From positions 120,001 through 152,000 of the forward strand of contig NC_007181.1 of the NCBI RefSeq assembly GCF_000012285.1: a stretch of DNA of 32,000 nt, read 5' to 3'. Shown here one piece after another: positions 8,542 through 18,804 of the stretch (position 1 is the first letter of the stretch; every line of letters begins with the position of its first letter). The stretch comes from Sulfolobus acidocaldarius DSM 639 (GTDB lineage Archaea; Thermoproteota; Thermoprotei_A; Sulfolobales; Sulfolobaceae). The notes beneath the pieces are model-generated. The model searched no databases. It was not told the DNA's origin and saw nothing but the letters and a program-made list of their open reading frames with translations. The position numbers and the translations under genes are program-made.

Positions 8542-9330
8542 TTAAAGCGTAGCTCTAATAGCTCCACCATCAACTGGTATTAAAACACCATTTACATAAG
8601 TTGCTAGACTTGAAGCCAGAAATATTATAACATTAGCAACTTCCTCCGGGGTTCCAAATCTCCTGAGTGGAATATCTCTTGTCACTTCATCAATAACCTG
8701 CTCCTCAGTCTTATTCTCGTTCTTTGCCCTATTCTTAACAACTTCTTTTAACCTATCTGTTAACGTCCAACCCTGCATTATTCCGTTCACTAAAATACCT
8801 TTAGGTCCTAGTTCCCTTGAGGCTACTTTTATTAGACCTGCCAAGGACAGTCTTACCACATTAGATAAATCCAGATTATCCATTGGTTGTTTTAAGGTGA
8901 ATGAGGTAGCTAATATAATTCTTCCATCCTTTTCCATTCTTTTACCTGCTTCTCTTACTGCAACTACTGCACTCATTAACAGTAAGTTAAATGCATTTCT
9001 CCAATCCTCATCTGTTAAAGTCATTAGATCTCCTGGCTTTGGACTACCAGTATTATATACGAATATATCTAGTCCGTTTAGCATCTTATAGCCTTCATCT
9101 ATGAGCTTTGCAACATCATCAGCCTTGGTTAAATCTGCCGTAACATAATGAACCTTACCAATAGTCTTTAATTTTTCATATGCTAAAATGAGGTTCTTTT
9201 CATCATGTGAAGATATGATTACCTCTGCACCCTCTTCAACAAACCTCTTTGCTGTAGCGAACCCTATTCCCTTGCTAGAGGCTGTTACAATTACTTTTTT
9301 ACCTTTTATTCCTAGATCTATCTTCTCCAC
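8542..9330 (-). CDS. Short-chain dehydrogenase/reductase family protein (atypical: no obvious YxxxK)
   Basis: It has a Rossmann motif (TASSKGIG), an NTG motif and a C-terminal PVDGG. By eye alignment to FabG, the region where YxxxK is expected reads SNVVRLSLAGLIK. Confidence 0.85.
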   Translation of the reverse strand: MEKIDLGIKGKKVIVTASSKGIGFATAKRFVEEGAEVIISSHDEKNLILAYEKLKTIGKVHYVTADLTKADDVAKLIDEGYKMLNGLDIFVYNTGSPKPGDLMTLTDEDWRNAFNLLLMSAVVAVREAGKRMEKDGRIILATSFTLKQPMDNLDLSNVVRLSLAGLIKVASRELGPKGILVNGIMQGWTLTDRLKEVVKNRAKNENKTEEQVIDEVTRDIPLRRFGTPEEVANVIIFLASSLATYVNGVLIPVDGGAIRATL

Positions 9331-9940
9331 CTAAGAAGAATTCAATCGTATATCTTTTTGAATCTTTCGAAACGTTTATAAGTTTCCTTATCATCTTAAA
9401 GTCCTCCTCAAGTACGCTCCTTAGATTTGGGTTATATAATGCAGCAGCAGGATGATAAGTTGGAAATATATTTATTACGTGATCATCAATTTTCCATTCA
9501 TATACTTTCCCCCTACTTTTAGTTATGGAATGGAATTCAATATTAGCCTTTGAGAGAATATAAGAAGTTGAATGTCTACCTAGTGTGACAATTACTTGGG
9601 GTTTTATTAATCTAATTTGGAGATCAAGGTATGATGAACAAGCGGTGATCTCGTCTTCTTCAGGATCCCTATTATTTGGTGGTCTGCATTTGACAACGTT
9701 TGTTATGAAAACTTCATCTCTTTTGATACCCAACGTGTCTTCTATCAATTTAGTGAGTAGTTTTCCAGCTGAACCGACAAAAGGTCTTCCCTCTTCATCT
9801 TCTGTTTCCCCTGGAGCTTCTCCAATGAACATAACTTTAGCCTTAGGATTCCCTTCACCAGGAACAGCGTTCCTTCTGTCCATCCAGAGTTTACACTTTC
9901 TACAAACTTTGATTTCGTTAGCTATCTCGTCTAACTCCAT
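9299..9940 (-). CDS. udg: Uracil-DNA glycosylase, family 4 (thermostable, Fe-S type)
   Basis: Motifs present: CRKCKLW...R...[19 protein letters not shown] (family-4 motif A, GEAPG), further Cys residues for the 4Fe-4S cluster, and HPAAALY (motif B). Confidence 0.9.
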
Positions 9941-9965
9941 ATATACATATTTTTACAAAAAGATC

Positions 9966-10019
9966 ATATATCAGGTTATCGACCCTTCTTCATTGCTCAG
10001 CCTATGTCGACGTCATCAT
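9966..10019 (-). ncRNA. C/D-box guide sRNA (2'-O-methylation guide), canonical dual-guide architecture
   Basis: The minus strand reads AUGAUGA (C, 10019-10013), 12 nt cgucgacauagg, CUGA (D', 10000-9997), gca, AUGAAGA (C', 9993-9987), 12 nt agggucgauaac, CUGA (D, 9974-9971). The box order and 12-nt spacers match the archaeal consensus exactly. Ends are approximate. Confidence 0.8.
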
Positions 10020-10091
10020 AACTGTACCCCACCCGGCTGAGAATCCTCATTGACATAAGTTAATATACTCAGATTCCGGAGGAGGGTGGGG
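10020..10091 (-). ncRNA. Candidate H/ACA-box pseudouridylation guide sRNA (single hairpin with K-loop and ACA)
   Basis: The minus strand has an 8-bp lower stem (CCCCACCC/GGGUGGGG), a 7+6 nt internal loop (UCCUCCG / UCAGCC), and a 5-bp upper stem (GAAUC/GAUUC) plus a U.G pair. Tandem G.A/A.G pairs close a 20-nt apical loop. ACA (10025-10023) lies 1 nt after the stem and 15 nt from the upper-stem base, followed by a 3-nt tail. No ORF is present. Confidence 0.5.
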
Positions 10092-10109: not shown

Positions 10110-10121
10110 ATATTTATATTT
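10110..10121 (+). promoter_or_regulatory. TATA-box-like element (atatttatattt) about 27 nt upstream of the GTG at 10142
   Basis: The position and composition fit a Sulfolobales leaderless promoter. Confidence 0.45.
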
Positions 10122-10935: not shown

Positions 10936-11793
10936 ATGGAAGGAGTAGTACCCGCAATAGTCACCCCCTTTAAGGAAAATGAAGATATTGATTTCGAATC
11001 TCTAAATTTATTTTTAAATTTTCTTGAGAGAAATGGAGTTAAATGGATATTTGCTTTAGGTAGTACTGGAGAATTTAATATGCTGAGCTTGAGTGAGAAG
11101 CAAGAGTTTATAAGAAAACTGAGAGAGATAACAAAACTCAAAATAGTAATCAATGTCTCTGAAAATTCTCTTAAGAACACACTCTCATTAGGTAAGCTAG
11201 CTTTTGATGTGGGCATGGAAGGAATTGCACTTATTCCTCCAATATATCATAAGCCTTCAGAAAGTGGGCTAATTAGCTATTTTGAGGAGATGTCGAAATT
11301 AGATCTTCCATTATATGTTTACGCATATCCTGACAAGGTTCCCATAACATATGAGACAATAAGTAAGTTGGTAAAACAAGATATTATAGATGGAATTAAG
11401 TTGACCACTGATAACTTACCTTTATTCAAGAAGTATTTGGGTCTAAAGGAAATTAAGAATGACCTGAAAATCCTGATAGGGAGCGATACTTTATTTGTAT
11501 ACTCACTAATTGAGGGTGGTAATGGATGCATATCGGCAGTAGCTAACGTTGCCCCAGAGTTAATGATGAGGGCATATCAGGGAGTAAGGGAAGGCAAGTT
11601 AAATGAGAGTTTAGAGATTCAAGGGATGATATCAAAGATAAGCGACGCAATAATGAGCGGAGATTTTCCCTCAGGTGTTAAAGTAGCCCTGAGGTATAGA
11701 GGGGTAAGTGTAGGAAGTGTAAGGAGACCCTTAAAGGAGAGTATTGAGGTGAATGCTCGTATATATTCAGTTCTGAAAGAGCTCGGAATGTGA
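10936..11793 (+). CDS. DHDPS/N-acetylneuraminate-lyase superfamily class I aldolase (DapA- or KDG-aldolase-like)
   Basis: It has the family N-terminus (PAIVTPFKENEDIDFESL), a GSTGE motif, and a Schiff-base Lys context (IDGIKLTT) at the expected position. 285 aa. Confidence 0.8.
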   Translation: MEGVVPAIVTPFKENEDIDFESLNLFLNFLERNGVKWIFALGSTGEFNMLSLSEKQEFIRKLREITKLKIVINVSENSLKNTLSLGKLAFDVGMEGIALIPPIYHKPSESGLISYFEEMSKLDLPLYVYAYPDKVPITYETISKLVKQDIIDGIKLTTDNLPLFKKYLGLKEIKNDLKILIGSDTLFVYSLIEGGNGCISAVANVAPELMMRAYQGVREGKLNESLEIQGMISKISDAIMSGDFPSGVKVALRYRGVSVGSVRRPLKESIEVNARIYSVLKELGM

Positions 11794-11845
11794 TGATGGG
11801 TCGATGTTACTGATTAGTTGATGAGATTATCTCCGGCTGAGAATC
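11786..11845 (+). ncRNA. C/D-box guide sRNA, canonical dual-guide architecture, overlapping the stop codon of the upstream aldolase gene
   Basis: The plus strand reads GUGAUGA (C, 11790-11796), 13 nt ugggucgauguua, CUGA (D', 11810-11813), uuag, UUGAUGA (C', 11818-11824), 12 nt gauuaucuccgg, CUGA (D, 11837-11840). It fills the 52-nt gap between convergent genes. Ends are approximate. Confidence 0.8.

Positions 11846-18710: not shown

Positions 18711-18804
<94 letters not shown>

Follow-up and report, generated by a model that had tools for sequence, protein, structure and literature searches.

A tandem of an H/ACA guide sRNA and a C/D box sRNA upstream of udg in Sulfolobus acidocaldarius and its conservation in related archaea

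Introduction

The closest described systems are the archaeal H/ACA motifs Sso1, Sto1 and Sac1, each of which was found by Muller et al. (2009; PMC2651775) to be 'directly flanked' by a C/D box motif (Sso1 by Sso-159, Sto1 by sR4 and Sac1 by sR39). The H/ACA-C/D arrangement at the locus described here is thus already known. In the same study, northern blot analysis of S. solfataricus detected a long form containing both the H/ACA and C/D motifs as well as a short form, and the target of all three guides was predicted computationally to be U35 of the intron-containing pre-tRNATyr(GUA), with an ACA distance of 14 nt. No rRNA target or other tRNA target was found for Sac1, Sso1, Sto1 or Mse2, and the reconstituted Sso1 RNP was active in vitro. 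The S. islandicus orthologue, sR115, is associated with Cbf5; its deletion abolishes only the pseudouridine (Ψ) at position 35 of tRNATyr, and its reconstituted RNP is also active.

More distant counterparts are the euryarchaeal single-hairpin H/ACA sRNAs, such as Pab91 of Pyrococcus abyssi (Muller et al., 2008; PMC2377435). They follow the same structural rules, in that the K-turn or K-loop is situated 5-6 bp above the pocket and the ACA box 14-15 nt from the target U. However, sRNAs of this type target rRNA, whereas the predicted target of Sac1 is a tRNA precursor with which it would pair across the intron; in addition, they have no reported fusion to a C/D sRNA and show no detectable sequence homology to Sac1. 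Promoterless C/D sRNA genes, the products of which are cut from longer transcripts, have also been described in archaea (Tripp et al., 2017, reviewed in PMC7994747).

In this study, we analysed a 32,000-nt stretch of the S. acidocaldarius DSM 639 chromosome (NC_007181.1), hereafter called the window, in which the window coordinate plus 120000 equals the genome coordinate. The anatomy of the locus, its identity with the published locus, and its conservation and covariation were established in the present analysis, while expression, association with L7Ae and the function of the orthologues are taken from the literature.

Identity of the locus

A first-pass annotation, made from the sequence alone, had proposed that the minus strand of the window encodes an H/ACA guide hairpin placed head-to-tail with a C/D sRNA, as a dicistronic precursor or a composite RNA. 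Both proposals fit the published locus. The published sequences of Sac-sR103 and Sac-sR11 match the window exactly at an offset of 120000, and the Sac-sR103 sequence that was listed among the S. acidocaldarius C/D box sRNAs by Dennis et al. (2015; PMC4644070) is identical to that of the window. Sac-sR103 has been assigned to complement(129966..130023), and its exact match lies at 10023..9965 (minus strand). Table S1 of Daume et al. (2017; PMC5539422) places an H/ACA box sRNA at complement(130023..130091), and its entry for Sac-sR103 reads "preceded by an H/ACA box sRNA". By comparison of coordinates, this H/ACA feature corresponds to 10023-10091 (minus strand) in the window.

Since the sequence of Sac1 has been published only as a figure, its identity with this hairpin is drawn from the coordinates and from the annotation 'according to Muller 2009'. 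Between the published Sac1 + Sac-sR39/sR103 (PMC2651775, PMC4644070, PMC5539422) and the present locus, no difference was found. We therefore consider it very likely that the locus consists of the H/ACA guide sRNA Sac1 followed by the C/D box sRNA Sac-sR103 (the Sac-sR39 of Muller et al., 2009), both on the minus strand, and that Sac1 is a guide for U35 of pre-tRNATyr. The suggestion that such close H/ACA-C/D coupling was an undescribed archaeal arrangement does not hold, because it had been described by Muller et al. (2009; PMC2651775).

Anatomy of the H/ACA hairpin

On the minus strand, the region reads 5'-CCCCACCC-UCCUCC-GGAAUC-U-GA-GUAUAUUAACUUAUGUC-AAU-GA-G-GAUUCU-CAGCC-GGGUGGGG-U-ACA-GUU-3', so that a lower stem, a pocket, an upper stem, a K-turn and an ACA box follow one another within 10091-10023, and the C/D sRNA begins 3 nt further on. 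The lower stem is formed by CCCCACCC (10084..10091), whose 5' end coincides with the published 5' end at 130091 (window position 10091), and GGGUGGGG (10027..10034). The pocket is bounded by the 5' guide strand UCCUCC (10078..10083), the predicted partner of which is G37 plus the first intron nucleotides of pre-tRNATyr (GGAGGA), and by the 3' guide strand CAGCC (10035..10039), which complements GGCUG. The upper stem (helix 2) pairs GGAAUC (10072..10077) with GAUUCU (10040..10045) and includes a closing G.U pair.

Above helix 2, a K-turn module occupies 10046..10071 and consists of U(3n)-GA on the 5' side, a distal stem-loop with a G-C closing pair, the 3-nt bulge AAU, and GA-G(3b) on the 3' side. 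The ACA box (10023..10025) lies 14 nt 3' of the pocket top and ends at the published end of the H/ACA feature (130023, window position 10023). It is separated from the C box by the 3-nt spacer GUU (10020..10022), exactly as first read. Upstream of the hairpin, a TATA-like A/T-rich element (AAATATAAATAT, 10110..10121, minus strand) is centred about 25 nt from the hairpin 5' end and represents a putative archaeal promoter; A/T-rich stretches are likewise present 20-40 nt upstream of the hairpin in homologues.

Several dimensions given by the first-pass annotation require revision. The G that precedes GAAUC forms a pair with the U that follows GAUUC, and this extra G.U pair makes helix 2 6 bp rather than 5 bp long, reduces the internal-loop pocket from the proposed 7+6 nt to 6+5 nt, and sets the ACA box at 14 nt, not 15 nt, from the pocket top. 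The overall structure was nevertheless recognised correctly. The GA/GA motif of the L7Ae-binding type was also confirmed, but as a K-turn with a 3-nt bulge and, in most loci, a G-C closing pair, instead of the K-loop with a plain 20-nt loop that had been envisaged.

The hairpin therefore has the structural features of an archaeal single-hairpin H/ACA guide, namely two stems around a pocket, a K-turn 5-6 bp above it, and an ACA box at 14-15 nt. The K-turn is recognised at the sequence level by the GA/GA dinucleotides, the bulge and the closing pair above a 6-bp helix 2, and its distal stem contains only one clear Watson-Crick pair in Sac1. For the minus strand, RNAfold returned both the upper stem and the lower stem of 8 bp (-26.2 kcal/mol, z = -2.56), and 2 of 200 shuffled sequences folded as well as this. 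A single-sequence fold of this kind is only moderate evidence; the case against a chance structure rests on conservation. No H/ACA family of Rfam matched the hairpin at either gathering or permissive thresholds.

Conservation and covariation in homologous tandem loci

Sulfurisphaera, Stygiolobus, Saccharolobus, Acidianus and metagenomes contributed twelve further H/ACA-C/D tandem loci, giving 13 loci from at least five genera. The covariance model, which was built without 4 of the 13 loci, matched the element in all 13 (E = 1e-8 to 1e-21). In each homologous locus, the tandem lies within a few kilobases of udg. The S. tokodaii locus (L026; 85.7 bits) occupies the same position upstream of udg, while that of S. 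solfataricus (L027), which was outside the model building, scored 40.9 bits (E = 1e-8) and is about 4 kb from udg; a C/D sRNA follows the hairpin in both. A udg-based search of species-representative genomes returned only distant relatives. A loss of synteny in such relatives (Acidianus, Metallosphaera and MAGs), where a transporter gene lies directly upstream of udg, was considered and rejected, because the covariance model matched the element about 1.6 kb upstream in two of these loci (L005 and L001).

Base pairing is maintained in 99.5% of the stem cells across the 13 loci, with compensatory (two-sided) changes in 8 of the 16 pairs. None of 500 shuffles reached the observed covariation score, and slid controls were paired at 65% or less. 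The compensatory changes that the first-pass annotation had named as a check on its reading are thus present. All eight pairs of the lower stem are kept in every locus, with compensatory changes in three of them. Helix 2 is 100% paired, and both sides have changed in four of its seven pairs; the pair that closes it over the pocket reads G.U, G-C, A-U, U-A or C-G across the homologues. The distance between the ACA box and the pocket top is exactly 14 nt in every one of the 13 loci of the model alignment, and likewise in each of the 9 loci that were parsed. The GA/GA of the K-turn is also invariant, its bulge reads NAU in 12 loci and AGU in L027, and the G-C closing pair of the distal loop is a standard pair in 11 of the 12 loci scored.

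The two guide strands differ in their conservation. The 3' guide is CAGCC in 12 of the 13 loci and UAGCC in the other, where a wobble pair would keep it compatible. In contrast, the 5' guide differs between genera (UCCUCC, UCCACC, AUCACC, UUCGCC, CCUAUC and CCUAUU), as would be expected if it pairs with a variable intron. Read as reverse complements, the 5' guides predict that U35-A36 is followed by GGAGGA in Sulfurisphaera tokodaii, S. javensis and L035, GGUGGA in Stygiolobus azoricus and L034, GGUGAU in Stygiolobus caldivivus, GGCGAA in RB850M, GGUGGAG in L033, GAUAGG in Saccharolobus and S. tengchongensis, and AAUAGG in Acidianus.

These features are shared with Sso1+Sso-159 of S. solfataricus, Sto1+sR4 of S. 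tokodaii and sR115 of S. islandicus, which resemble the present locus in the lower stem, the pocket, a 6-bp helix 2, the K-turn, the 14-nt ACA distance and the C/D sRNA that directly follows, and which have the same 3' guide, CAGCC. Homology to the S. tokodaii and S. solfataricus elements was obtained from the covariance model. The Saccharolobus elements differ from Sac1 in having CCUAUC as the 5' guide instead of UCCUCC, a lower stem of another sequence in which the changes are compensatory, a helix 2 with a 1-nt bulge, and an ACA-to-C-box spacer of -1 to 1 nt compared with 3 nt in S. acidocaldarius.

The C/D box sRNA and the products of the tandem

Sac-sR103 (9971..10019, minus strand) has the organisation AUGAUGA-12-CUGA-3 (GCA)-AUGAAGA-12-CUGA, and thus the C, D', C' and D boxes and the ~12-nt guides of an archaeal C/D box sRNA. 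The C box AUGAUGA (10019-10013) is followed by the D' guide (10012-10001), the D' box CUGA (10000-9997), the C' box AUGAAGA (9993-9987), the D guide (9986-9975) and the D box CUGA (9974-9971). In Rfam, it matched C/D families below threshold only (sR14 gave 22.8 bits, with a gathering score of 38). Conservation of the guide cores CGACAUA and GGGUCGAU extends over six loci from Sulfolobus, Sulfurisphaera and Stygiolobus. Published accounts of its target disagree: Muller et al. (2009; PMC2651775) stated, as 'data not shown', that the C/D half is able to guide 2'-O-methylation in the peptidyl-transferase region of 23S rRNA (U2621, 2645 and 2648), whereas in Dennis et al. (2015; PMC4644070) Sac-sR103 is apparently without a robust rRNA target ('NP NP').

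In published RNA-seq data, Sac-sR103 is represented by 15,304 and 25,932 reads in two studies (PMC5539422, PMC4644070), while read numbers for the H/ACA part are low (125, 47, 85 and 79, against 15,304 for the C/D part; PMC5539422). L7Ae RIP-seq yielded one minus-strand peak at 129924-130080 (log2FC 4.06, p = 2.3e-17; PMC5539422), which spans both sRNAs and therefore is no proof of L7Ae on the H/ACA K-turn.

Thirty nucleotides after the D box lies udg (9299..9940, minus strand), a type-4 uracil-DNA glycosylase gene whose product shows 100% identity to the type-4 UDG of S. acidocaldarius; an overlap between the udg start codon and the D box CUGA is seen in Sulfurisphaera and in two loci from metagenomes. 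The C/D sRNA has no room for its own promoter and is evidently released from a longer precursor. In this respect, the locus resembles the promoterless C/D sRNA genes and di- or polycistronic snoRNA genes, including the overlap of the Sulfurisphaera C/D sRNA with a downstream start codon, but the upstream partner here is an H/ACA sRNA and not a protein-coding gene or a second C/D sRNA. On the basis of gene spacing only, there is a small chance that the H/ACA-C/D unit works as an uncut bifunctional particle, or that it forms a processed leader at the 5' end of the udg mRNA, such that translation or stability of this DNA-repair mRNA would be controlled by sRNA excision or by L7Ae binding to the C/D K-turn. 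The leader, if true, would tie RNA-modification capacity to uracil repair.

We also weighed an obligate composite RNA, in which the uncut H/ACA-C/D molecule of about 125 nt would be the functional form and would engage both enzyme sets. Composite C/D-H/ACA scaRNAs of the U85 type in eukaryotes carry both domains on one transcript, function undivided, and act on snRNA targets in Cajal bodies. In 12 of the 13 loci, the ACA-to-C-box spacer measures just -1 to 4 nt, and the final A of ACA doubles as the first base of the C box in S. solfataricus, Acidianus and RB850M. Such tight spacing would make it hard to produce two fully independent mature ends. The long form on the northern blot, the citation of Sso-159 as a 120-nt RNA (Muller et al., 2009; PMC2651775) and the single L7Ae RIP peak over both parts also agree with an uncut molecule. 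However, in S. acidocaldarius the 58-nt C/D sRNA is about 100-fold more abundant than the H/ACA part and has a defined 5' end at 130023, and the two parts are annotated separately. The short S. solfataricus form is thought to be the H/ACA motif alone (PMC2651775), which by itself is active in vitro. Furthermore, a C/D flank has been reported only for Sso1, Sto1 and Sac1 and not for Mse2 or Ape7 (PMC2651775), and in one locus (L035) the two genes are separated by an A/T-rich 35-nt spacer that carries a T5 run. Unlike those of the U85-type scaRNAs, the halves of this locus are found apart, and their predicted targets are unrelated. An obligate composite is improbable, and we favour two guide sRNAs derived from one precursor.

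Predicted target of the H/ACA guide

The target pattern proposed by the first-pass annotation, GGCUGA-U-N-CGGAGGA, is off by one nucleotide on each side. As GGCTGANNCGGAGGA, its best occurrence in the window has three mismatches, and the number of occurrences is not above chance. The corrected register, GGCUG-U-A-GGAGGA, fits C32-U33-G34-U35-A36 of tRNATyr(GUA) followed by G37 and the intron; in this predicted duplex, CAGCC pairs with GGCUG, that is, with G30-G31-C32-U33-G34. The match of CAGCC to the anticodon loop is predicted from the universal anticodon-loop sequence of tRNAs, alongside the computational prediction of Muller et al. (2009).

The only tRNA gene in the window (18712-18804, minus strand) has the anticodon TCT and is not a tRNA-Tyr gene. 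ARAGORN and a regular expression found no tRNA-Tyr gene over the homologous loci. A scan of viral sequences gave no matches; a looser scan matched the acceptor and D arms of tRNAs, and a refined scan returned 12 unrelated sequences. In metagenomes, a search combining the predicted target with the T-loop returned five matches, none of which is a tRNA and all of which have a GC content of 0.50-0.65. In a full-text literature search, the predicted target string was matched only by unrelated primers. Neither mapping of Ψ35 nor deletion of Sac1 in S. acidocaldarius was found in the literature consulted.

A genuine H/ACA guide might instead act mainly on an rRNA site or another RNA in S. acidocaldarius, as the target duplex is predicted here, archaeal H/ACA guides act mostly on rRNA, and the A. 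pernix relative Ape7 has a second, predicted 23S target. We regard this as very unlikely. Muller et al. (2009) found no rRNA or other tRNA target for the guides of this group, and deletion of sR115 in S. islandicus removes only tRNATyr Ψ35. In addition, the nearly invariant 3' guide is the complement of C32-U33-G34 beside the target U, as the GUA anticodon loop requires, and the genus-to-genus variation of the 5' guide fits an intron and not a conserved rRNA.

Least probable of all is a plus-strand RNA element, for which the first-pass annotation had pointed to GGCUGA/CGGAGGA as the internal loop of a K-turn, or else a structured spacer or terminator within a divergent promoter region. The isolated plus strand folds slightly better (-27.1 kcal/mol, z = -3.39), but this reading was rejected on the following grounds. 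About 20 G.U cells of the 13-locus alignment turn into A.C mismatches on the plus strand, where the covariance model scores 12 bits compared with 82 bits on the minus strand. Only a minus-strand reading makes sense of the fixed 14-nt ACA distance, the GA/GA K-turn and the C/D boxes alongside, and the published RNA-seq transcripts lie on the complement strand. The pocket strands, moreover, have kept their sequence although unpaired, and a terminator has no need of this.

Proposed mode of action

For the U35 guide, the following mechanism may be proposed, in which the promoter, the site of processing and the precise duplex with the target in S. acidocaldarius are predicted elements. Transcription from the putative promoter just upstream would yield one transcript of about 125 nt. 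The K-turn of the hairpin would bind L7Ae, and the lower stem and ACA box would bind Cbf5-Nop10-Gar1. The pocket would then be placed on the intron-containing pre-tRNATyr(GUA), with CAGCC paired to GGCUG of the anticodon arm, UCCUCC paired to G37 and the start of the intron, and U35 and A36 left unpaired, so that Cbf5 could convert U35 to pseudouridine prior to splicing of the intron. The C/D half would assemble with L7Ae, Nop5 and fibrillarin. A cut at or near ACA would allow the C/D sRNA to accumulate separately, while some of the long form may persist.

Conclusions

Overall, this analysis adds little that is new, as the locus is the S. acidocaldarius copy of a published system. The hairpin has no Rfam family, and it was recognised as an archaeal H/ACA guide in the first-pass annotation from the raw sequence. 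Small additions are the presence of the tandem in Stygiolobus, Acidianus, Sulfurisphaera javensis, Sulfolobus tengchongensis and uncultured Sulfolobaceae as well, and the finding that the two guide genes have been drawn 35 nt apart in at least one lineage. The system to which the locus belongs reflects the loss in Sulfolobales of Pus7 activity at U35 of tRNATyr, a role that was taken over by Cbf5 with a guide RNA that pairs across the tRNA intron.

Identification of the locus

The hairpin at 10091-10020 and the C/D sRNA that follows it at 10019-9971, both on the minus strand, are the published H/ACA guide Sac1 and Sac-sR39/sR103. The published sequences of Sac-sR103 and of a second C/D sRNA, Sac-sR11, match exactly at 10023..9965 (minus strand; DSM 639 coordinate 130023) and 11786..11845 (plus strand; 131786); thus, window position equals genome position minus 120000. 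The UDG protein is 100% identical to the protein named S. acidocaldarius type-4 UDG. Daume et al. 2017 (PMC5539422) list both the H/ACA sRNA and Sac-sR103 in their Table S1, the latter with 15,304 reads, and one minus-strand L7Ae RIP-seq peak (129924-130080, log2FC 4.06, p = 2.3e-17) covers the two. The published ends correspond to 10091, the first base of the hairpin, and 10023, the last A of the ACA.

Conservation and structure of the hairpin

The hairpin matches no Rfam family. It is flanked by udg (9299-9940, minus strand) on one side and a divergent ORF of about 100 aa on the other, in a region containing no credible coding sequence. Neighbourhoods of udg in relatives were gathered through UDG homologues (loci numbered with L). 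The H/ACA and C/D tandem was present in Sulfurisphaera tokodaii (L026) and S. javensis (L029), Sulfolobaceae RB850M (L032), Stygiolobus azoricus (L028) and S. caldivivus (L030), and three metagenome contigs (L033-L035). A covariance model trained on these and S. acidocaldarius (nine sequences) detected four loci outside the training set: Saccharolobus solfataricus (L027; 40.9 bits, E = 1e-8), Sulfolobus tengchongensis (L031; 52.9 bits) and two Acidianus-type loci (L005 and L001; about 52 bits). A C/D sRNA adjoins the H/ACA element in all four.

In the resulting 13-sequence alignment, which was fitted to the model's own structure and contains related sequences, 99.5% of the stem cells are standard pairs, and both-sided changes occur in 8 of the 16 pairs (24 cells). 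The observed covariation score was reached by none of 500 shuffles, and pairing fell to 36-65% when the 3' partners were slid by one to three columns. In a MAFFT alignment of six sequences, pairing was likewise 100%, and two pairs were compensatory. Compensatory changes in both stems, which the first-pass annotation had named as a check on its proposal, are thus present.

The minus-strand fold from RNAfold contains both the 8-bp lower stem and the upper stem (-26.2 kcal/mol, z = -2.56). Since the plus strand does about equally well (-27.1 kcal/mol, z = -3.39), energy by itself cannot decide between the strands. The plus-strand reading is rejected by about 20 alignment cells with G.U pairs that would read A.C on the opposite strand, by the covariance model (82 bits for the minus strand versus 12 bits for the plus strand) and by the published strand-specific reads, which together settle the minus strand.

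On this strand, the hairpin reads CCCCACCC-UCCUCC-GGAAUC-U-GA-(17 nt)-AAU-GA-G-GAUUCU-CAGCC-GGGUGGGG-U-ACA-GUU. The GA/GA tandem is unchanged across the 13 loci, 12 of which have NAU as the 3-nt bulge, and the distal stem is closed by a G-C pair in most. These features define a K-turn, rather than a K-loop, on top of a 6-bp helix 2. The ACA lies exactly 14 nt from the pocket top in all 13 loci, not 15 nt as first measured. The G10077/U10040 position, originally left unpaired, is G.U, G-C, A-U, U-A or C-G across homologues and is therefore a base pair, shifting the register by one base. With these corrections, the minus-strand H/ACA hairpin of the first-pass annotation is confirmed by the published feature ends and the 13-locus conservation.

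Target of the H/ACA pocket

Twelve loci have CAGCC as the 3' guide, and the thirteenth has UAGCC. Beside an unpaired U-N, CAGCC needs a target of the form 5'-GGCUG-U-N. The anticodon loop of tRNATyr(GUA) reads C32-U33-G34-U35-A36, and the demanded target appears to fit this loop. The 5' guide differs among genera (UCCUCC, UCCACC, AUCACC, UUCGCC, CUCCACC, CCUAUC and CCUAUU), a variation that fits pairing with a fast-evolving intron, not with conserved rRNA. From the guide sequences, the predicted target in S. acidocaldarius is GGCUG-UA-GGAGGA; no tRNA-Tyr gene is present in the window or any comparison locus.

Muller et al. 2009 (PMC2651775) predicted the H/ACA motifs Sso1, Sto1, Sac1, Mse2 and Ape7 to guide Ψ35 formation in intron-containing pre-tRNATyr(GUA). 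In these motifs the K-turn sits 5-6 bp above the pocket, and the target U and the ACA are 14 nt apart. The authors identified no rRNA target for the guides of Sulfolobales and obtained Ψ35 formation in vitro with a reconstituted Sso1 RNP (PMC2651775). The S. islandicus orthologue sR115 is Cbf5-associated and active as a reconstituted RNP, and its deletion abolished tRNATyr Ψ35 and slowed growth (PMC11077068). The pre-tRNATyr target predicted here is based on this computational prediction, the orthologue experiments and the guide conservation pattern. The functional interpretation first proposed, an H/ACA guide beside a C/D guide, stands, apart from a pocket register that was off by one base.

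Of the six guides associated with Cbf5 in S. islandicus, four are atypical (without lower stem and without ACA), and further guides of this kind, beyond those annotated, probably exist in S. acidocaldarius. Table S1 of Daume et al. 2017 also has an entry at genome 1043124..1043206, outside the window. The window contains an intron-bearing tRNA gene of 93 nt (18712-18804, minus strand; ARAGORN tRNA-???, Rfam tRNA 59.3 bits), which we read from its loop, CU-TCT-AG, as tRNA-Arg(TCT) whose intron follows position 37.

The C/D sRNA

Sac-sR103, ending at 9971 (minus strand), consists of AUGAUGA, a 12-nt guide, CUGA, GCA, AUGAAGA, a 12-nt guide and CUGA. Its matches to Rfam were all sub-threshold (best sR14, 22.8 bits). 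Six loci from Sulfolobus, Sulfurisphaera and Stygiolobus share the guide cores CGACAUA (D' guide) and GGGUCGAU (D guide), which argues for conserved C/D targets. The two guides, GUCGACAUA and GUCGAUAA (9975-10012, minus strand), resemble each other. Muller et al. 2009 gave 23S U2621 plus 2645 and 2648 as targets, as 'data not shown' (PMC2651775); the supplementary table of Dennis et al. 2015, where the entry for Sac sR103 is apparently 'NP NP', disagrees.

Organization and processing of the tandem

The back-to-back layout first described holds: the gap from ACA to C box is 3 nt in S. acidocaldarius, with the C/D boxes directly adjoining, and eleven of the other loci fall between -1 and 4 nt; the C box shares its first base with the final A of the ACA in Saccharolobus, Acidianus and RB850M. 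The coupling had been thought undescribed in archaea; however, Muller et al. 2009 reported a C/D motif directly flanking each of Sso1, Sto1 and Sac1 (Sso-159, Sto-sR4 and Sac-sR39), so the arrangement was already known (PMC2651775).

We favour the reading that one promoter, putatively the TATA-like AAATATAAATAT at 10121-10110 (minus strand), would yield one H/ACA and C/D precursor, which would be cut near the ACA, and that some of the uncut long form may remain. A northern blot in S. solfataricus detected a long form (H/ACA plus C/D) and a short form (PMC2651775). In S. acidocaldarius small-RNA libraries, the C/D part is ~100x more abundant than the H/ACA part and has its own 5' end at 130023 (PMC5539422). 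An uncultured Sulfolobaceae contig (L035) carries a 35-nt A/T-rich spacer, AGCAATTTAAAGTTGTTTTTGGATATTTTAAAAGA, with a T5 run between ACA and C box (1341-1375), indicating that tight fusion is common, not obligatory; this spacer looks like a terminator and promoter splitting the tandem into two transcription units. An obligate bifunctional H/ACA-C/D RNA, with which the close spacing and the long form would agree, is unlikely.

Genomic neighbourhood

The D box CUGA overlaps the udg start codon (CTGATGG) in Sulfurisphaera tokodaii (L026, 9998-10003), S. javensis (L029, about 9997-10003) and two metagenome loci (L034, 2498-2503; L035, about 1422-1427), where udg has the sRNA pair as its immediate 5' leader. 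The corresponding gap in S. acidocaldarius is 30 nt long and includes a T5 run. C/D sRNA genes overlapping ORF 5' ends are a known minority arrangement according to Tripp 2017, as cited in PMC7994747. Sac-sR11 (Rfam sR11, 43.4 bits; 11786-11845, plus strand) begins 8 nt before the stop codon of a DHDPS-family ORF (10936-11793). An sR11-like C/D sRNA lies between DHDPS and udg in S. solfataricus (L027, about 9945-10000) and S. tengchongensis (L031, about 9895-9960); thus, both sRNA loci are kept in the neighbourhood despite rearrangements. The divergent ~100-aa ORF, which has no Pfam match, is divergently paired with the tandem in nine Sulfolobus, Sulfurisphaera and Stygiolobus-type loci, and ORF and tandem are inverted relative to udg in Stygiolobus (L028, 9513-9966; L030, 9500-9969) and one metagenome contig (L033, 2038-2487).

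The only additions made here are a broader taxonomic range, covariation statistics and spacing variation for this family. For the Sac1 locus, expression and L7Ae association are documented in S. acidocaldarius itself, and its function is known from two sister species.
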